Assembly (NCBI GenBank): GCA_964643685.1 | Contig: CAZXTN010000003.1 | Coordinates: 10,462 to 74,461 of the forward strand | Length of the DNA stretch: 64,000 nucleotides | Direction: 5' to 3' | Origin: Candidatus Micrarchaeota archaeon | GTDB lineage: Archaea; B1Sed10-29; JAJRYS01 | Shown here: in pieces, positions 8,488-56,070 of the stretch | Layout of the letters: each line of letters starts with the position of its first letter | How positions within the stretch are numbered: position 1 is the stretch's first letter | Made by a program: the position numbers and the translations under genes | Notes under the pieces: model-generated | Told to the model about the DNA's origin: nothing | What the model saw: the letters and a program-made list of their open reading frames with translations, nothing else | The model's database searches: none

Positions 8488-9735
8488 ATGCAAGTATTAA
8501 AAGAAAACACACAAGGAATTTTTTACGCTTCTTTAATGCTATTTCTTGTATTTGGCTTAACATTCATACTAGTAACTACTTTGAATCCATTTGAAACAAA
8601 TTCATTAAATTTAAAAGCACCAGCACAGCCAGTAATACTCCCCATAGAATCACCAAGCTGCCCTGTTAACTTAACAACAATAACAAGCAAAGACACTGCA
8701 ACTTTAAAATGGAACTTATGCAATGAAACAGATTTTTACAGGCTAAACAAAAGAGTTTTAAACGGCAGTTGGCAATGGGTAAAAGATTATGAAAAAACAA
8801 GAAACAATGCCCTTGTATTAAGACAAGAAGAAGATATGGAATACAGGATCATAGCCTTAATAGGAGAGTCACTGCAATTAAATGGAACAGAAAATAACAC
8901 AATTTTAAACATTTCAAACACGATATTAATCCCAGCTAAAATACAAGAAGAGAGCAATACAAACACAACCCAAGAACAAGACAACTCAACAAGCCCTGAA
9001 AATGAAACAAGTTCAGAGCAGCAATTCACTTGTGCAATAAGCTTAAATTCACTTCAACAAAACAACAGCAGCCAATATACTTTAAAATGGAACTTGTGCA
9101 ATGAAACAGATTTTTACAGGCTAAACAAAAGAGTTTTAAACGGCAGTTGGCAATGGGTAAAAGATTATGAAAAAACAAGAAACAATACAAATGTATCAAT
9201 GGAAGACAAGGAAATAGAATACAGGATAATAGCAGCAAAAGGGCAGTCACTGCAGTTAAACGGAACAGAAAACATTACAATCCTAAACATTTCAAACACA
9301 GTGCTAATCCCTGCATTAATACAACAAGAAGAAAACACTACAAACACAACCCAAGAACAAAACACTACAACAGAAAATCCGCAGAATGAAACAAGCACAA
9401 GCAATACAACAAGCACGCAACAATGCAGCGACTCAGATGCAGGAATAAATAAAAACATTCAAGGAACAGCAACTCTTGGAACCACTTCAAAAACAGACTA
9501 CTGCTCAGGAGGAGGCTTAATAGAATACTACTGCTTAGACAATCAAATAAAATCAGTTTACATTTCATGCGAAGACACATGCCAGAATGGAAAATGCATA
9601 ACAAATACAACTCAAAATATCACCTCAACAGAAGAACCAGAACAAGTTCAACCACAACCAACAGTCAAAACAAACACAAACCCTTCAATAATAGACATTT
9701 TTTCAGCAATAATAAAATACTTTTTCAAAGTATAA
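8488..9735 (+). CDS. Secreted/anchored N-glycosylation-rich protein with an internal duplicated ~95-aa module and Cys-rich C-terminus
   Basis: N-terminal hydrophobic anchor. Two near-identical copies of TLKWNLCNETDFYRLNKRVLNGSWQWVKDYEKTRNN...LQLNGTEN.TILNISNT.LIPA. Dense NxT/NxS sequons, and a C-terminal cluster of 8 Cys. Confidence 0.6.
   Translation: MQVLKENTQGIFYASLMLFLVFGLTFILVTTLNPFETNSLNLKAPAQPVILPIESPSCPVNLTTITSKDTATLKWNLCNETDFYRLNKRVLNGSWQWVKDYEKTRNNALVLRQEEDMEYRIIALIGESLQLNGTENNTILNISNTILIPAKIQEESNTNTTQEQDNSTSPENETSSEQQFTCAISLNSLQQNNSSQYTLKWNLCNETDFYRLNKRVLNGSWQWVKDYEKTRNNTNVSMEDKEIEYRIIAAKGQSLQLNGTENITILNISNTVLIPALIQQEENTTNTTQEQNTTTENPQNETSTSNTTSTQQCSDSDAGINKNIQGTATLGTTSKTDYCSGGGLIEYYCLDNQIKSVYISCEDTCQNGKCITNTTQNITSTEEPEQVQPQPTVKTNTNPSIIDIFSAIIKYFFKV
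8701..9363 (+). repeat. Intragenic duplication: two ~285-bp near-identical copies, starting at 8701 and 9079 (378 bp apart)
   Basis: Direct comparison of 8701..8985 with 9079..9363 shows long identical runs, e.g. ctttaaaatggaactt.tgcaatgaaacagatttttacaggctaaacaaaagagttttaaacggcagttggcaatgggtaaaagattatgaaaaaacaagaaacaat. Confidence 0.85.
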
Positions 9736-12639: not shown

Positions 12640-12851
12640 TCCCAACGGCCGTCCGTTGGATCGACAGGCCATCTTTCGGCTTCGCCTTCGATGACCTCTA
12701 AAAAAAAGAGGGCTCTCATTTTCTTTTTTAAAAAACATAAAGAAGAAGTTATCGAGCAAAGCGAAGATAACTTTAATTTTTCGTCACTTGTCAAAGAGAG
12801 GCTTTTAAAAGCAAAACCCTGCTTAGTAAAAAAACAGAGGTGAGTTAAAAA

Positions 12852-16321: not shown

Positions 16322-16452
16322 AAGACAGCTAAGCGAAGCGCATGCTGTCTACAGGGGAATCAGAAACTCCCTAGAAATCAATCGCCTAAAGACTCAAACG
16401 TTTTTCCTTAACAGGAAAAACTGAGAGGGGCAGCCAGCCCCCTGCGTTTCGG
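16322..16452 (+). repeat. GC-rich structured element, copy A (fills the whole gap between convergent stop codons)
   Basis: Contains the 16-nt core CTAAGCGAAGCGCATG shared with copies at 33867..33882 (reverse complement) and 55929..55944. Hairpins GACAGC-[TAAGCGAAGCGCAT]-GCTGTC and GGGGC-AGCCA-GCCCC show compensatory changes relative to the other copies. Confidence 0.7.
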
Positions 16453-33762: not shown

Positions 33763-33800
33763 AAAAATTAGATTATATATTCTTTCATTCTTCTTTTGAT
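33763..33800. repeat. 38-bp perfect direct repeat (left copy) flanking element copy B; duplicates the last 11 codons plus stop of gene 33978..34661
   Basis: aaaaattagattatatattctttcattcttcttttgat is identical at 33973..34010. Confidence 0.9.
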
Positions 33801-33972
33801 CACCGAGCCGCGGGGGACTCACCGCCCCCCTCAACTCTAGGTAACTCCTGCTCCCCCTGCTGACCACATGCGCTTCGCTTAGTGCTCATTTTTAGGGAAT
33901 TCTTGAAAACTTTGAGTTTTCAAGTTTGCGAAGTTATATTTCGCATAATCTGATCTCCCTCCTTAATAATAA
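33801..33972 (-). repeat. GC-rich structured element, copy B (minus orientation), with an extra AT-rich 5' module containing a 10-bp perfect hairpin
   Basis: The reverse complement reads ATGAGCACTAAGCGAAGCGCATGTGGTCAGCAGGGGGAGCAGGAG...GGGGGGCGGTGAGTCCCCCGCGGCTCGGTG, which is 42/42 identical to copy C over its first 42 nt. The extra module contains CTTGAAAACT-caa-AGTTTTCAAG. Confidence 0.8.
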
Positions 33973-34010
33973 AAAAATTAGATTATATATTCTTTCATTC
34001 TTCTTTTGAT
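33973..34010. repeat. 38-bp perfect direct repeat (right copy); overlaps the 3' end of gene 33978..34661
   Basis: Identical to 33763..33800. Confidence 0.9.
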
Positions 34011-34661
34011 TTCGTCAAGAGGAAGAACAGTAGTTACTAATGGAATTTTTTCAACCTCTGAAATCTTAAGAGCAACCTTGTCAACTTCAGAAATGTTATG
34101 AAGCACAACCATGGTAGGCTTCAATTTAGTTACACGGATTGCAATCAAAGGGCTTCTTCCCATTGAAACATTAGTGAAAATCAAAGCCCTTTCAGTAGTG
34201 TTGCCGTAAATTTTAATAAATTCATCAGCAGGCAGTTCAAGAATAGCGCGGATAGAATCAACAATAGTAAAGCCGTAAATTTTGGTTTTTTTCAGAACTG
34301 CTTCGTTTGAAATTATTCTCCCTTCAATTGATTTTACAAAATCCTTTGACTTCATTGACTTGGAAAAATCCTCCACGTCAAAAACTTCACTTGGCTTCTG
34401 CAATTGAAGCTTTTTATAAACCCAGCCTCCTTTCTGCCTGTCAATTTCAATAATGGCATTCACAAACCTTTTAATAATGCTTGCTCCTGGACTCTTTCTC
34501 CTATTCCCTTCATAATCAGAGATAGTTGAAGGAGTTACATTTAAAAAATCAGCTAATTCAGTTTGAGAAATTCCGAAAATTTCACGCCATTTTTTCAAAG
34601 AAGAGCCAGGGTTGTCACTTAAGGTAATTTCCCCTGCAATGTCAAGCAAAATCTTGTCCAT
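33978..34661 (-). CDS. HTH (XRE-type) transcriptional regulator with C-terminal DRTGG-like domain (putative)
   Basis: N-terminal HTH LKKWREIFGISQTELADFLNVTPSTISDYE; the C-terminal ...ALIFTNVSMGRSPLIAIRVTKLKPTMVVLHNISEVDKVALKISEVEKIPLVTT resembles a DRTGG domain. Confidence 0.5.
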   Translation of the reverse strand: MDKILLDIAGEITLSDNPGSSLKKWREIFGISQTELADFLNVTPSTISDYEGNRRKSPGASIIKRFVNAIIEIDRQKGGWVYKKLQLQKPSEVFDVEDFSKSMKSKDFVKSIEGRIISNEAVLKKTKIYGFTIVDSIRAILELPADEFIKIYGNTTERALIFTNVSMGRSPLIAIRVTKLKPTMVVLHNISEVDKVALKISEVEKIPLVTTVLPLDEIKRRMKEYII

Positions 34662-44422: not shown

Positions 44423-44534
44423 TGGACTCGGCGGGAGTTGAACCCGCGGCCTCTCCCACGCCAAGGGAGCAATCTGTAGCGAAAACAATCCGTTTGGGGA
44501 AGTGGGTTTGTTTTTACCACTGATCTACGAGCCC
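44423..44534 (-). tRNA. tRNA-Ala (anticodon GGC) carrying a ~38-nt non-canonical intron in the D-arm region
   Basis: Reverse-strand hand fold: acceptor GGGCTCG/CGAGTCC with a G3-U70 wobble (the Ala identity pair); anticodon stem CTCCC/GGGAG, loop TTGGCGT; T arm GCGGG-TTCAACT-CCCGC. Total 112 nt, with the extra sequence between the D-stem strands (GATC ... GATT). CCA not encoded. Confidence 0.7.
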
Positions 44535-44672
44535 GGTTGTAAAGAAAGGTTTTTTGCTGGTTAAATTTAGTTTTTTGGTTATTTTTAATTGTTTTTGAAG
44601 AATAAGGATTTGATTTAAATTAAGGAGAAGGGAAGGTGGGGGCTTCCTTTCTTTTGAAGGGTTTTTTGCTGT

Positions 44673-44897
44673 TTAAGGTGAAACGTATAGTATGTTGTCT
44701 CCTCTTACTATTACTGTGCCTATTTTTGATTTCAGTTGCTCGTTTTCAAGTTCTTCTGCTTCGTCAAGCACTAGGTTCATGTGTTGGTCAAATGCTTTTA
44801 GTTTTCCTCTTAGTTGCTTGTTGCCTTTTAGTCTTACTAGTACTTGTTGGTTCATTTCTTTGTTCAGCAAGTCAAATGGTCTTGTTATTGATTCCAT
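44673..44897 (-). CDS. Sm-like (LSm) archaeal protein
   Basis: 74 aa; Sm1/Sm2 motifs (VLVRLKGNKQLRGKLKAFDQHMNLVLDEAEE...VIVRGDNILYV). Confidence 0.85.
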   Translation of the reverse strand: MESITRPFDLLNKEMNQQVLVRLKGNKQLRGKLKAFDQHMNLVLDEAEELENEQLKSKIGTVIVRGDNILYVSP

Positions 44898-53359: not shown

Positions 53360-53606
53360 AAAAACCTTTAAAAACAATTAAAAGCATTAATTGAAAACAG
53401 AAGAGGGTTTTAACGCGACCATGCAACCAAAACAGCCTCTTTCTGAAAAAAACAAATATTGATTAGAGTTGATTATCAAATGGACTTTAAGTTAAAAGAA
53501 AAACGCTGGAACACGGCTTTTCTTTTAAAAAAAGAAAACACCGGGAAAAGAAAACTAACCACATTCGACTACGTCGAAGTGCTTAGAAAAAAAGAGTGGT
53601 GAAGAA

Positions 53607-55916
53607 ATGGACTTTAAGTTAAAAGAAAAACGCTGGAATACTGATATTGAAAACGAGATAAACGAAAAATGGAAGCAGGAAAAATTATACAAATTCAACA
53701 AAAACACAGAAAAAGAGATAATTACAATTGACAACCCACCAGCATACCCAAGCGGACACTGGCACCCCGGCTCAGCAACAGGATACTCATACATAGACAT
53801 GATAGCACGCTACGAAAGAATGAACGGAAAAGAAATCAACTTCCCATACTGCCTTGACAGAAACGGCTTGCCAATTGAAATGGCAGTTGAAAAAAAATAC
53901 AAAAAAAGCGCACACGACTATGACAGGGAAAAATTCCTAAAACTCTGCGAACAAACAATCTCAGAATTCGGAGAAGAAATCAGAACCGGCTACGAAAAAC
54001 TAGGAATATCAGTAGATTACGAAAACTACTACTACACAGACATGGAAGAATACAGAAAACTAACACAAGCAACTTTCATAGAACTATACAAAAAAGGTTT
54101 AATCTATGAAGACGACAGGCCAACAAACTGGTGCACTGGATGCAAAACAACAATAGCAGATTCAGAAATAGAATACAACGAAGGCACAATAAAACTAAAC
54201 AAGTTAAAATTCAAAGTAAAAGAAACAGGAGAAGAAATAGAAATAGCAACAACCCGTCCTGAACTATTATGCGCTTGTGAAACCGTAATATACAATCCAA
54301 AAGATAGCAGGTACAAGCACTTGAACGGAAAACATGCAATCACTCCAATATACGAAAAAGAAGTTTTAATACAACCGCACCCAGCAGCTTCAATGGAATA
54401 CGGCTCAGGCTTAGTAATGATATGCTCATACGGGGACTCAACAGACGTGCAGTTATTCATTGAACTCGGTTTAAAGCCAACAAAGGCAATTGACAAGCAT
54501 AGGAAAATGACAGAAGCAGCTGGAAAATACGCGGGATTAACAGTGCCAGAAGCAAGGGAAAAAATAATCAAAGAACTGGAAGAAACAGGCGTGTTAATAG
54601 GACAAGAAGACACGCCGCACAGGTACCCAATATGCGAAAGATGCCACTCCCCAGTTGAAATCATAGCAATAAAAGAATTCTACTTAAAACAAATAGAGTT
54701 CCTAGACAAAGTAAAAGAGATGGCTGACAAGACAAAATTCTATCCAGCAAAACACAAGCAAATACTCTTCGACTGGATAGACAGCGTGAAAATCGACTGG
54801 CCAATAAGCAGAAGAAGGTACTACGCAACAGAGATACCATTATGGTACTGTGAAAAATGCGGAGAACTCCTCCTCCCAGAACCAGGAGAATATTACCAGC
54901 CATGGAAAAATAACCCGCCTGAAGGAAGCAAGTGTTCAAAATGCGGAGGAACAGAATTCAAAGGAGAAACAAGAGTATTCGACACTTGGATGGACTCCTC
55001 AATATCAAACTTATACGTAAGCGGATACAAAAGAGACGAAGAATTATTTAACAAAACATTTGGAAAAATCATACGCCCACAGGGAAGAGACATTGTAAGA
55101 ACATGGCTCTATTACACAATGCTAAGAAATTACCAGTTGCTTGAACAGCCTGCTTTTGAAAAAGTAATGATACACGGCATGGGCTTAGACGAGCATGGTA
55201 AGAAGATGAGCAAAAGCAAAGGCAACTTTATCTCACCAGAAGAAATGCTTTCAAAATACGGAGCAGACGCTTGGAGATTATGGGCAGCTTCAGAAACAAA
55301 CATGGGAGAAGATTTCAGGATATCAGAAGAAAGAATAAAAGGAGCGTCAAAATTCCTGACAAAACTATGGAACCTAAGCAGGTTCATCTCCACATTTGAA
55401 ATAAAAGAAACAGGAGAATTAAAAAACACGGACCACTGGATACTCGCAGAATTAAACCAATTAATAAAACAAAGTAAAGAAGGATACGAAGAATACAACT
55501 TCTACATCCCAGCTACAAGAATCAAAGAATTTATTTGGAACACTTTCTCATCAAACTATGTTGAAATGGTAAAACCAAGAGCATATGAAGGGGACACAGG
55601 AGCACTATACACCCTGCACACCTGTTTAAAGACAATTTTGAAATTATTAGCTCCAATCACTCCGTTCATAACAGACAAGGTATATAGAGAAGTATATGGA
55701 AAAACAGTACACTTAGAGGCATTCCCAGAGGAGAATGAGAATTGGAACAGCAACTTCAAGGAGTTAACAGAAAAAATAATTGAATTCAATTCAATGGTAT
55801 GGAAGACAAAAAAAGAACAAGGATTATCACTAAACAGCGAAATAGAAGGAATAAAAATACCAAGCGAATTAAAACCATTTGAAGACGACTTAATCAAAAT
55901 GCACAAGTTGAAATAA
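53607..55916 (+). CDS. valS: Class I aminoacyl-tRNA synthetase, ValRS-like (short, 769 aa)
   Basis: The N-terminus resembles archaeal ValRS (IDNPPAYPSGHWHPGS...IDMIARYERMNG...LDRNGLPIEMAVEKK, WCTGCKTTIADSEIEY, KMSKSKGN). The HIGH box is atypical (HWHPGS). Confidence 0.6.
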   Translation: MDFKLKEKRWNTDIENEINEKWKQEKLYKFNKNTEKEIITIDNPPAYPSGHWHPGSATGYSYIDMIARYERMNGKEINFPYCLDRNGLPIEMAVEKKYKKSAHDYDREKFLKLCEQTISEFGEEIRTGYEKLGISVDYENYYYTDMEEYRKLTQATFIELYKKGLIYEDDRPTNWCTGCKTTIADSEIEYNEGTIKLNKLKFKVKETGEEIEIATTRPELLCACETVIYNPKDSRYKHLNGKHAITPIYEKEVLIQPHPAASMEYGSGLVMICSYGDSTDVQLFIELGLKPTKAIDKHRKMTEAAGKYAGLTVPEAREKIIKELEETGVLIGQEDTPHRYPICERCHSPVEIIAIKEFYLKQIEFLDKVKEMADKTKFYPAKHKQILFDWIDSVKIDWPISRRRYYATEIPLWYCEKCGELLLPEPGEYYQPWKNNPPEGSKCSKCGGTEFKGETRVFDTWMDSSISNLYVSGYKRDEELFNKTFGKIIRPQGRDIVRTWLYYTMLRNYQLLEQPAFEKVMIHGMGLDEHGKKMSKSKGNFISPEEMLSKYGADAWRLWAASETNMGEDFRISEERIKGASKFLTKLWNLSRFISTFEIKETGELKNTDHWILAELNQLIKQSKEGYEEYNFYIPATRIKEFIWNTFSSNYVEMVKPRAYEGDTGALYTLHTCLKTILKLLAPITPFITDKVYREVYGKTVHLEAFPEENENWNSNFKELTEKIIEFNSMVWKTKKEQGLSLNSEIEGIKIPSELKPFEDDLIKMHKLK

Positions 55917-56013
55917 AAAAAATGAGCACTAAGCGAAGCGCATGTGGTCAGCAGGGGGATCAGGATATCCCTAAAACTGAGGGGGACGGCAAGTCCCCCG
56001 CGGTTTGGATTGG
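55917..56013 (+). repeat. GC-rich structured element, copy C, inserted directly after the ValRS stop
   Basis: aaaaATGAGCACTAAGCGAAGCGCATGTGGTCAGCAGGGGGATCAGGATATCCCTAAAACTGAGGGGGACGGCAAGTCCCCCGCGGTTTGGATTGG; flanked by 25-bp imperfect direct repeats at 55896..55920 and 56016..56040. Confidence 0.8.
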
Positions 56014-56070
56014 AAAAAATGCACAAGTTAAAATGAAAAAAGTGAAAACCAAAAGTGGTGAATAGATAAA

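Follow-up and report, generated by a model that had tools for sequence, protein, structure and literature searches.

The window, a 64,000-nucleotide stretch of DNA from a Micrarchaeota archaeon, contains a gene for an HTH_3-family regulator whose 3' end is present twice (Table 1). The repeated sequence, the 38-mer AAAAATTAGATTATATATTCTTTCATTCTTCTTTTGAT, has two exact occurrences, and we found no further matches to it with up to three mismatches (none is expected by chance). Because the flanking bases differ on both sides, the repeat is exactly 38 bp long, as the initial annotation had reported. The annotation also described the copy within the gene as the last 11 codons plus the stop; it actually contains 10 sense codons (IKRRMKEYII), the stop codon, and 5 nt of 3' flank. 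This duplication terminates in a T5 run.

Between the two copies lie 172 bp (33801-33972), and here the earlier description was accurate: a GC-rich element in the orientation of the gene is joined to an AT-rich module with a perfect 10-bp hairpin. The GC-rich element is a core with three hairpins, which we call copy B of the "R1" family. In the AT-rich module, the arms of the 10-bp hairpin are at 33902-33911 and 33915-33924, and those of the 5-bp hairpin are at 33928-33932 and 33940-33944. The AT-rich module of B occurs just once within the 79 kb that we examined.

Table 1. Features of copy B and of other modules in the window. Positions are relative to the first nucleotide of the window.
Feature	Position	Strand	Remarks
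Copy H, F-type GC module	12640..12700	-	GCGAAGC-loop hairpin plus palindrome CCAACGGACGGCCGTTGG; antisense, adjoins the 3' end of tRNA-Leu
Copy A, R1 core with 48-nt internal module	16322..16452	+	took the place of a ~22-bp spacer that separates the PepSY and histone-fold genes; no duplication
Copy B, distal copy of the 38-bp duplication (pseudo 3' end)	33763..33800	-	continuous with the ancestral downstream flank
Copy B, GC-rich three-hairpin core (R1 family)	33801..33890	-	63% GC; oriented like the gene; 3' end adjoins the distal duplicate
Copy B, AT-rich module	33891..33972	-	5' side of the insert; 30% GC; perfect 10-bp hairpin plus 5-bp hairpin
Copy B, proximal (functional) copy of the 38-bp duplication	33973..34010	-	end of the HTH regulator gene (see text)
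HTH_3-family regulator gene, 3' end duplicated	33978..34661	-	source of the 38-bp repeat
ValRS 5' end, upstream copy of perfect 34-bp duplication	53478..53511	+	makes a 40-codon upstream ORF
ValRS 5' end, 93-nt AT-rich insert	53512..53604	+	has hairpin module CCACATTCGACTACGTCGAAGTGCTTAG; missing at this site in L012
ValRS 5' end, downstream (functional) copy	53605..53638	+	ValRS 5' end
Copy C, proximal duplicate (30 bp)	55896..55925	+	last 6 codons of ValRS, stop TAA, 9 nt
Copy C, R1 core, 90-nt insert	55926..56015	+	missing in relative L012
Copy C, distal duplicate	56016..56045	+	27/30 identical, in frame, stop TGA in register

The same structure is present at site B in an independent ENA assembly (L001), whose distal copy is 37/38 identical; this assembly differs from the window by three A-to-G differences, which are partly outside the repeat. 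More broadly, assemblies made independently (ENA, JGI, and Logan) show identical occupied structures, which are thus not assembly artefacts.

Site B is empty in six relatives (L006, L007, L008, L009, L010, and L011): a single gene end is present and the insert is missing, which is the unoccupied allele that the initial annotation had proposed to look for. The gap at these empty alleles is 38 bp (248 - 210), as predicted. The close relatives with the empty site have a regulator that is 93% identical. Relatives with one gene end, no insert, and the predicted gap imply that B was inserted recently and that 38 bp of the target were duplicated in the process. The resemblance to a target-site duplication that was noted at the outset is thus borne out, and so is the recency of the event, given that the two copies of the repeat are 100% identical and that the insert is missing from a relative with 93% identity. 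Other sites also have empty counterparts. Site C is empty in both L012 and L013, and at site A, a 23-bp spacer that is retained in L177 and L178 is replaced by the element in the window.

Related copies and the ends of the inserts

Besides B, the window and the rest of the same contig contain five copies or relatives of the core with locus-specific duplications of 20-60 bp. All five duplications repeat the 3' end of the gene upstream, which has the same orientation and in one case is a tRNA gene. Flanking duplications of similar length at other copies had been proposed as a check on the target-site reading, and they were found. The duplicated length is 38 bp at B, 30 bp at C, 60 bp at D, about 29-36 bp at E, 56 bp at F, and 20-27 bp at G. 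The 60 bp at D are the 3' end of tRNA-Ile and its trailer, and they run to just past the T-run. A 48-nt module is 100% identical in copies A and E. No flanking duplication was seen at copy H.

Other hairpin modules behave in the same way, including at the 5' ends of genes and in a relative with ~90% identity. The 34-bp duplication at the 5' end of ValRS is one example, and the hairpin module of its insert is also present in relative L006. In the ~90% relative, the duplications are 57 bp (ScpB gene) and 46 bp (metallopeptidase gene). The end of the ScpB gene has been struck independently in both genomes, with different inserts. Duplications occur in intergenic DNA as well as at gene 5' ends, and mini-inserts of just 21-29 nt also occur. 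Overall, the inserts in our sample (only about 13 events from two genomes) are 21-187 bp long. For an endonuclease III-like gene, the C-terminus encoded by the proximal copy is ...CPKRGLSEANAV and that of the distal copy is ...CPKKGVEKK; for a 168-aa protein, the corresponding ends are ...NPN and ...NPTLN. Some junctions have 1-3 nt of possible microhomology.

The initial annotation had also raised the option that a site-specific recombinase gave rise to the repeats by duplicating an att site, in which case the inserts would be remnants of elements that integrated at the 3' ends of genes or tRNAs. When archaeal integrases act, direct repeats of 38-60 bp that take in the 3' terminus of a protein or tRNA gene are typical, and copy D sits at the 3' end of tRNA-Ile. 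But the repeat at each copy comes from its own locus, and the repeats differ in sequence and in length (20-60 bp), yet the cargo is related; the copies do not share a core att sequence, and no match to an attP was found. Also, the cargo is only 27-187 bp, copy A has a deletion (22 bp) instead of a duplication, and duplications are present at gene 5' ends too. There is no integrase nearby, and we found neither a parent plasmid or virus nor a virus or plasmid contig that carries the modules above chance level. Overall, we rejected this option as extremely unlikely.

On the 3' side, the inserts stop at a roughly constant point, 2-11 nt past the last hairpin, and F and G share the end ...CCAACGGCTGGCCGTTG(G). 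The 5' ends vary: B is longer by 82 nt and D by about 18 nt, and E is without the first hairpin. In all six events that could be oriented (6/6), the element points in the same direction as the gene end that was duplicated, and the conserved 3' module adjoins the distal copy. This co-orientation could reflect selection and not mechanism. The fold of the R1 core pairs 93% of cells, versus 37-55% in slid controls, and there are compensatory changes at 6 pairs. Invariant G-U pairs in the core mark the sense strand, and folding is strand-specific.

The inserts have no terminal inverted repeats. In particular, the ends of the B insert (TTATTATTAAGG... and ...GGCTCGGTG) are not inverted repeats of each other. 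The core of copy A does contain partially complementary sub-terminal stretches (CTAAGCGAAGCGCA and TGCGTTTCGGTTAG, 12/14 matching). These stretches, together with the long and variable direct repeats that are known from IS1634-type elements, would fit MITE-like derivatives that are mobilized by a transposase of the IS1634/IS1549 type. However, the complementarity is internal rather than terminal, and copies B and C show it only weakly; at their 5' ends, the inserts are truncated or vary by as much as about 80 nt; unrelated modules behave alike; and no DDE transposase was found in the 79 kb. Mobilization by such a transposase is very unlikely.

The inserts also have no A-rich or simple-repeat tail at their 3' ends. 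Because just 2 of about 7 duplications end at T-runs, we rejected the idea that the ends of the duplications correspond to the 3' ends of transcripts.

Clade restriction and a proposed model for insertion

Repeat-insert-repeat events occur at 6-8 per 100 kb here, as compared to 0.5-1.1 per 100 kb elsewhere (bacterial-type MetK loci, almost all of them from bacteria, served as a negative control). Similarly, pseudo-3'-ends were found for 9 of 141 ORFs in a narrow Micrarchaeota-like clade and for 0 of about 843 ORFs elsewhere (Fisher p = 2e-8). We rejected a wider distribution, as genus-level relatives (~70% identity) had 0 events in about 150 ORFs. When related loci totalling 1.15 Mb were searched with a covariance model, the R1 core was found in this species only. 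We also rejected the idea that the distal copies derive from the DNA of a distant donor: the metallopeptidase that lies between copies D and E is 87% identical to the relative's, and ordinary orthologues are 87-89% identical.

In the ~79 kb that we annotated, there was no reverse transcriptase, transposase (DDE or Y1), integrase, Cas1, or nuclease cassette, and none of the inserts could be traced to a donor copy. An exact-motif scan for the core (CTAAGCGAAGCGCATGNNGTC) gave no matches in GTDB representative genomes or JGI metagenomes. In a viral collection, the core had three 16-mer matches, which is at or below the chance expectation, with covariance-model scores near E = 1; the F-type palindrome and the TTCGAC hairpin had no viral matches. 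Rfam 15 in sensitive mode assigned none of the modules to a family, even with thresholds of E <= 10 or 0.1, and reported tRNAs only. On the basis of sequence and Rfam, we rejected a C/D-box sRNA, a hammerhead, or a twister, and an origin from a tRNA was rejected as neither ARAGORN nor Rfam supported it. The 47-amino-acid ORF over copy C corresponds to P0121 in the protein collection and has no homologues there. We did not find a matching archaeal element in the literature.

Our preferred explanation, to which we give a probability of roughly 0.55, is that the 38-bp repeat is the target duplication of a recent insertion of a 172-bp, non-autonomous, hairpin-rich module, and that it is one case of a lineage-restricted process that copies modules in at widely staggered breaks. 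At site B, the insertion is just 3' of the stop codon of the HTH regulator. Under this copy-in explanation, several families of hairpin modules would be placed at gene boundaries in this archaeon and in its ~90% relative. The target would be opened by two strand breaks that are 20-60 nt apart, and a copy of a donor module would be joined or synthesized in from its hairpin-bearing 3' end. Starting at the 3' end of the module would account for constant 3' ends and for 5' ends that are either lengthened by donor sequence or cut short. Once the staggered ends were filled in, the target would be duplicated, while a second break on the other side would yield a small deletion instead, as at copy A. 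The proximal copy keeps the gene intact. The copied intermediate would be RNA or single-stranded DNA, and the enzyme would be encoded outside of the 79 kb that we examined.

With intergenic spacers as short as they are here, only about 20-40 bp, a duplication of 30-60 bp will almost always take in the end of a gene. Copying templated by the 3' ends of genes, a further option of the initial annotation, may be at work. Because duplications are also found at gene 5' ends and in intergenic DNA, part of the association with 3' ends may reflect just long duplications amid short spacers.

Copying-in might take the form of SINE-like, RNA-mediated retroposition. The modules would be transcribed, and a reverse transcriptase that is encoded elsewhere would then copy them from the 3' hairpin, either primed at a nicked target or following a jump to where an mRNA or tRNA transcript ends at its 3' side, and the cDNA would be fixed with a variable duplication. 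Variable duplications, 5' truncation, and constant 3' ends are the signature of eukaryotic non-LTR retroposition, and this signature is matched here by duplications of 20-60 bp and one target deletion, by the truncation of copy E and the extra 5' sequence in B and D, and by the defined 3' ends. The strict co-orientation with the transcribed gene (including the duplication of a tRNA to just past its T-run), the T5 run at B, and the restriction of G-U pairs to the sense strand of the fold also fit this reading. Nevertheless, no reverse transcriptase was found in the 79 kb, the inserts are tailless, few of the duplications end at T-runs, and a model that relies on transcript 3' ends does not predict the events at gene 5' ends or in intergenic DNA. 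To our knowledge, no such retroposon is known in archaea. We view retroposition as a tentative possibility. It is a more specific form of the copy-in explanation and does not contradict it.

Alternatively, there may be no dedicated element, and the inserts could be scars of error-prone repair or template switching (a "templated insertion," as in microhomology-mediated or BIR-like repair). A broken or stalled 3' end would copy a hairpin segment from elsewhere, re-anneal upstream, and copy 20-60 nt of the target again. This would fit with inserts that are fuzzy at both ends, with the similar behavior of several unrelated hairpin modules (including the mini-inserts), with the occurrence of both duplications and a deletion, with the possible microhomology at some junctions, and with the lack of a mobility enzyme nearby. 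A fragile site also predicts that a gene end could be struck twice, as happened with ScpB. On the other hand, many sites carry highly identical copies of the same modules (A and E share the 48-nt module, and F and G have identical F-type ends), and the orientation is consistent. Furthermore, the events are sharply restricted to one clade, which suggests a specific agent and not generic repair. Repair scars are possible but on the improbable side.

If the process is genome-wide, then a narrow DPANN (Micrarchaeota-like) lineage scatters hairpin modules at gene boundaries, and its genes are spared via duplication of 20-60 bp at their ends. The process alters the C-termini of proteins (the endonuclease III-like gene ends within an element), makes upstream ORFs at the 5' ends of genes, and marks sites of gene relocation. 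The modules also matter for annotation, as they yield spurious small ORFs in public protein databases and confusing pseudo-gene-ends.

Reading-frame regularities

For all eight events at the 3' ends of protein-coding genes, the spacing from copy to copy is divisible by three (8/8, p = 1.5e-4), and in the five clear cases, the distal copy begins at a codon boundary (5/5). The differences between distal and proximal copies are mostly silent (16 silent versus 4 non-silent; p about 1e-5). At event E, every difference is derived in the distal copy, and six of the nine are silent. The distal copies also keep their stop codons: changed stops remain stops (TAA to TGA, three times). Insertion that is blind to the reading frame does not predict the spacing, the codon-boundary junctions, the silent divergence, or the preserved stops. 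Reading in frame through the inserts runs into 1-9 stops, a number that shows no depletion. As all three kinds of stop codon are present, we rejected translation through the insert.

A rather doubtful explanation for these regularities is that the products of insertion are coupled to translation. Either the distal copy would be decoded, with the hairpin insert skipped by ribosomal bypassing or by excision at the RNA level, or the insert would be assembled on an mRNA that is engaged by the ribosome. In the latter form, the mRNA would be cleaved in phase with its codons, ligated to the hairpin RNA, and reverse transcribed into DNA. Either form would account for the spacing, the codon-boundary junctions, the silent divergence, and the kept stops.

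More specifically, distal copies might still be decoded because the inserts are tolerated as recoding elements. The insert would be skipped by bypassing, or the insert and one repeat would be excised, so that the downstream copy would form the C-terminus in part of the product. Each of the regularities in the previous paragraphs, including the derived changes at event E and the three stop-to-stop changes, counts in favor of this, and the coding-like conservation of the distal copies hints at translational bypass. There is also a precedent: 81 inserts in Magnusiomyces mitochondrial genes are bypassed, and the gap in T4 gene 60 is mobile (PMC5009743; bioRxiv 10.1101/2022.08.31.505936). Matching take-off and landing codons exist here as well, but trivially so, because the flanks are duplicated. 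Against decoding, the inserts contain in-frame stops that are not depleted, neither bypassing nor RNA excision needs a gap that is divisible by three, and where the stop codon is part of the duplication, a ribosome that hops from the last sense codon would read next to nothing of the distal copy. We consider continued decoding to be unlikely. It concerns the fate of the copies after insertion and is compatible with any insertion mechanism. If the in-frame spacing and the coding-like evolution of distal copies are confirmed on more events, they would indicate a currently unknown link between insertion and translation.

Comparison with known systems

Like MITEs and REP/BIME elements, the modules are small, non-autonomous, repeated, hairpin-forming, and intergenic. 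MITEs have terminal inverted repeats and a short target-site duplication of fixed length, whereas the inserts here have no such ends, their 5' ends vary, and their duplications are of 20, 30, 34, 38, 46, 56, 57, and 60 bp, with one deletion. REPs, which are mobilized by RAYT, have no target-site duplication, whereas duplications are present at nearly all copies here and there is no Y1 transposase in the 79 kb. We also rejected a DGR, in which a template and a variable repeat of about 100 bp would differ at adenines: the repeats are 20-60 bp and are identical or have mostly silent differences, there is no reverse transcriptase nearby, and the adenine-specific pattern of TR/VR pairs is lacking.

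CRISPR arrays are similar in that integration duplicates a repeat of about 30-37 bp. However, what CRISPR integration adds, at the leader-repeat junction, are spacers of about 30-40 bp, and here there are many unrelated sites with duplications of 20-60 bp, and Cas1 was not found. Casposons and other Cas1 integrases are a parallel for archaeal integration via widely staggered nicks that are then filled in. Casposons insert at the 3' end of a tRNA gene, but their target-site duplication is fixed at 15 bp, they carry Cas1 and PolB genes, and their integration is site-specific and depends on terminal inverted repeats (PMC5137440). The modules described here have variable duplications and no terminal inverted repeats, and there is no Cas1 in the 79 kb.

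Yeast mitochondrial GC clusters, double-hairpin elements, and Rickettsia palindromic elements are mobile GC-rich hairpins in AT-rich organelle genomes or reduced genomes. We know of no hairpin clusters of this type that have been described in archaea. The modules resemble them in being short GC-rich hairpins in or beside the genes of a small, compact, AT-rich genome. In contrast, the flanking duplications of those clusters are absent or 2-3 nt, and here they are 20-60 bp and the gene end is preserved. The Magnusiomyces inserts are tolerated through recoding (PMC5009743). Unlike those bypassed inserts, the inserts here have stops that block translation through them.

IS1549 and IS1634 have direct repeats of 8-514 bp, for which no model of the mechanism has been put forward, and the family is diverse in archaea (PMC2266710). 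They share with the modules a prokaryotic host and direct repeats whose length varies and can reach tens to hundreds of bp (20-60 bp here). However, these insertion sequences are 1.5-2 kb, with a DDE transposase and defined ends, while the inserts here are 21-187 bp, with ill-defined 5' ends and no transposase found, and several unrelated modules act alike.

SINEs and other products of non-LTR retroposition are similar in more respects: their duplications are variable and sometimes long, target deletions are occasional, 3' ends are defined, 5' ends are variable and can be truncated, and the units are non-autonomous, structured, and RNA-like, without terminal inverted repeats. The differences are that the inserts here have no tail, that no partner reverse transcriptase or endonuclease was found, that the host is an archaeon, and that the modules are placed at gene ends in a consistent orientation. 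The in-frame spacing also has no counterpart among SINEs. Overall, the insertion signature is not that of any characterized class of prokaryotic mobile element, and it most closely resembles eukaryotic retroposition or the unexplained long repeats of IS1634.

Insertion at site B

A search of the window confirmed the exact repeat reported in the initial annotation: the 38-mer occurs exactly twice, at 33763-33800 and 33973-34010, where no occurrence would be expected by chance, and no third match was found in the window with up to 3 mismatches allowed. Because the bases flanking either side differ, the repeat is exactly 38 bp. The proximal copy, at the functional end of the HTH_3 regulator gene, comprises the last 10 sense codons (IKRRMKEYII; the original count of 11 was off by one), the stop codon, and the 5 nt of flank 3' to it. 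The 172 bp between this and the distal copy has the two parts initially described: in the orientation of the gene, an AT-rich module and then a GC-rich core (see table).

This structure recurs in L001, an independent ENA assembly. Over 10.7 kb, L001 differs from the window at only three positions (33741, 33761, and 33774), which lie within 34 bp, inside and just past the distal copy. Read in the orientation of the element, all three are A in the window and G in L001, so the repeat is 37/38 identical in that strain. In a Logan assembly (L002, SRR7051160), a unitig with k=31 stops exactly at the final base of the proximal 38-mer, which is expected because the repeat is longer than k.

The initial reading as a target duplication came with two proposed tests, empty sites and locus-specific repeats around other copies, and both uphold it. 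Orthologues of the regulator (93% identity) in three independent assemblies (L006 from ENA, L007 from JGI, and L008 from Logan) have a single gene end, and the convergent gene lies 38 bp further on; subtracting 210 bp from the 248 bp in the window gives exactly this gap. No GC-rich core, AT-rich module, or second gene-end copy was found at the site in these three assemblies. The site is also empty in three further relatives (93%, 83%, and 82% identity), which brings the relatives with one gene end and no insert to six. Site B is an insertion with a target duplication; a chance local duplication is excluded by the data.

Other copies and their structure

The R1 family (the GC-rich core) has three copies in the window (A, B, and C), and a covariance model built from them identified two more, D and E, just beyond the window on the same contig. 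F, G, and H (an F-type module in the window) make up another family, whose hallmark is the palindrome CCAACGGCTGGCCGTTGG. Comparison in the orientation of the element showed locus-specific repeats around C, D, E, F, and G. Site C is unoccupied in L012, a relative at 86% identity. Copy A has no flanking duplication and, relative to L177 and L178, stands in place of a 23-bp (~22-bp) spacer between convergent genes. At F, the gene end is now within the element (...CPKRGLSEANAV), and the distal copy retains ...CPKKGVEKK.

Copies of the element, their relatives, and their flanking duplications (window positions unless the contig stretch L172 or L173 is named)
Feature	Position	Strand	Properties or source	Flanking duplication	Duplicated sequence
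HTH_3 regulator gene	33978-34661	minus			
Insert B, AT-rich module	33972 to 33891 (gene orientation)		30% GC; perfect 10-bp hairpin and 5-bp hairpin		
Insert B, GC-rich core	33890 to 33801 (gene orientation)		63% GC		
Copy A, R1 core	16322-16452	+			
Copy B				38 bp, 100% identical	HTH regulator 3' end
Copy C, R1 core	55926-56015	+		30 bp, 27/30 identical	ValRS 3' end; stops TAA vs TGA in register
Copy D	L173 20257-20351	+	R1 covariance model	60 bp, two homopolymer indels	last 16 nt of tRNA-Ile(GAU) and trailer
Copy E	L173 20977-21110	-	R1 covariance model	about 29-36 bp, 83% identical	ScpB 3' end (AMSTKAYQTVL* vs AISTKVYQTVL*)
F, partial relative of R1	L172 15955-16015	-	R1 covariance model	56 bp, 91% identical	within endonuclease III-like gene
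G				20 perfect, about 27 total	168-aa gene 3' end

The F insertion (L172 15983-16063) is inside the endonuclease III-like HhH-GPD coding region, right after the Fe-S cluster cysteines, and the element supplies the last residues and stop of the gene as annotated (RGLSEANAV*, not the ancestral KGVEKK*). A 47-codon ORF (window 55922-56065) spans copy C and its distal duplicate and has been entered in public collections as "protein" P0121; it matches nothing but itself, and it is an annotation artefact of the GC-rich element.

The R1 core folds into three hairpins: paired cells in the alignment amount to 93%, versus 37-55% in slid controls. There are compensatory changes at six pairs, as well as invariant G-U pairs, which the opposite strand would show as mismatches. 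No Rfam family matched any module type. One 48-nt internal module is present in both A and E, with 100% identity. Degenerate P1-type hairpins are also present in intergenic DNA (window 12748-12775 and L172 about 12770-12810). The P1-type stem encloses an AGCGAAG/GCGAAGC loop (e.g., GTTATCGAGCAAAGCGAAGATAAC); GCGAAGC is an unusually stable DNA mini-hairpin motif.

Gene ends and reading frames

Duplications are found at 5' ends as well: at ValRS, perfect 34-bp repeats enclose a 93-nt AT-rich insert, which L012 lacks, and a metallopeptidase gene has a 31-bp duplication. Such 5'-end events, one deletion outcome, and repeats that differ between sites, derive from each locus, and vary in length exclude another initial reading, att-site duplication by a site-specific recombinase. 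As a result of the 5'-end duplications (window 53478-53604; L173 20789-20875), short ORFs lie upstream of the genes and terminate at the true start codon or just ahead of it. The TGA is 5 nt ahead of the ATG at ValRS and overlaps the GTG (as GTGA) at the metallopeptidase; this looks like termination-reinitiation coupling.

In the relative, the 3' end of ScpB has a perfect 57-bp duplication around a 27-nt AT hairpin; this gene end was struck in both genomes (copy E here), with different inserts. The relative also has a 46-bp duplication at the metallopeptidase 3' end, a further duplication at the CTP synthase 3' end, and a mini-insertion of 21-29 nt between 27-35-bp repeats.

Several other loci deserve mention. 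Just upstream of an intron-bearing tRNA (window 44423-44534, minus strand), a 21-nt direct repeat (window 44544-44676; 90% identical, spacing 112) encloses a segment with a GGAAGG...CTTCC hairpin and may be another such event, at the tRNA's 5' side. The metallopeptidase lies between tRNA-Ile and ScpB in this genome (L173 20116-21602; window-equivalent about 69116-70602) and is flanked by D and E, which are mutually inverted with both 3' ends toward the gene. In the relative, tRNA-Ile adjoins ScpB and the metallopeptidase is beside CTP synthase (L012 13480-14196; L006 9560-11870); relocation of the gene therefore coincides with copies D and E. The 3' end of tRNA-Ile is visible in L012 (13480-13495) and is identical to that in L173, and ARAGORN reports no tRNA in L012; this tRNA may have an intron or an unusual feature. 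Two tandem 378-bp units in a coding region (window 8701-9329; up to 99% identical over 108 nt) are an ordinary in-frame protein repeat with no relation to the hairpin inserts.

Eight solid events involve protein 3' ends: B and C in the window, F and G on L172, E on L173, one at L012 13573, one at L006 11371, and one at the CTP synthase end. In each, the distance from copy to copy is a multiple of three (210, 120, 102, 207, 150, 84, 120, and 366; chance probability 1.5e-4). For a ninth event, which is dubious, this distance is 42. Neither insert length nor duplication length is divisible by three by itself, and the rule fails for tRNA, 5'-end, and intergenic events (175, 127, 56, and 56). In the five events with unambiguous edges, the distal copy begins at a codon boundary. 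Differences between proximal and distal copies comprise 16 silent and 4 non-silent changes (if the distal copy were neutral, p would be about 1e-5, with transition bias left uncorrected). At E, comparison with an outgroup assigns every change to the distal copy; of the 9 changes, 6 are silent. In three cases a stop codon has changed to a different stop codon. The inserts contain all three kinds of stop, which block translation through them. These observations, which are post hoc and come from few events, suggest that distal copies are read as coding in register with the gene, or were until recently, and the frame-related regularities merit a genome-wide test. Import of distal copies from a distant donor is unsupported, as the metallopeptidase is 87% identical, like ordinary orthologues.

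Four of the eight spacings can be divided exactly by 30. The duplications concentrate in two length ranges, about 27-38 bp and 56-60 bp; as post hoc speculation, these come close to the length of DNA that an archaeal histone dimer or tetramer wraps, or to the footprint of a monosome or disome.

Distribution and mechanism

The host is a Micrarchaeota-like DPANN archaeon, as indicated by homologue names, an intron-bearing tRNA, a histone-fold gene, and pilin-like signal peptides. An element-agnostic scan for repeat-insert-repeat events gave, per 100 kb, 6.3 in this genome and 8.0 in the close relative, versus 0.5 in other archaeal loci (956 kb) and 1.1 in mostly bacterial loci (1.23 Mb). A targeted scan for a pseudo-copy of an ORF's own 3' end within 420 nt downstream identified 5/75 ORFs here and 4/66 in the relative, versus 0/693 in other archaeal loci and 0/about 150 in relatives at ~70% identity (Fisher's test, p = 2e-8). 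In those ~70% relatives (L179-L190), two genes come after the HTH regulator, one of 85 aa and one of 300 aa, the latter with a weak match to LigD primase-polymerase; no duplication events were found in their genomes. No modules were found on viral or plasmid-like contigs.

The feature is non-autonomous mobile DNA with an insertion signature undescribed for archaea. Membership tests excluded a classical MITE, a casposon, a REP element, and a DGR. Because intergenic spacers in this genome are only 20-40 bp, duplication length and selection give much of the association with gene ends. In all six oriented 3'-end events, the conserved 3' module adjoins the distal copy and the element is co-oriented with the duplicated gene end; the co-orientation suggests an extra strand-specific component.

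The best-supported account, to which we assign a probability of roughly 0.55, is copy-in at widely and variably staggered breaks. Inserts finish 2-11 nt past the last hairpin across copies (F and G finish identically), and copy-in would have a defined start there, at the module's 3' hairpin. Its finish at the module's 5' end would be ill-defined: B has 82 extra nt, D has about 18, and E lacks the first hairpin. Two versions of it, through an RNA intermediate as for a SINE or by polymerase template switching during repair, have equal, low probabilities. Annotation of ~79 kb revealed no gene for a reverse transcriptase, transposase, integrase, or Cas1, and no terminal inverted repeats were found on the inserts. 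A third version, copy-in by an IS1634-type transposase, seems very improbable. IS1634 and IS1549, which are reported with no mechanistic model, are the sole known prokaryotic precedent for long, variable direct repeats (PMC2266710).
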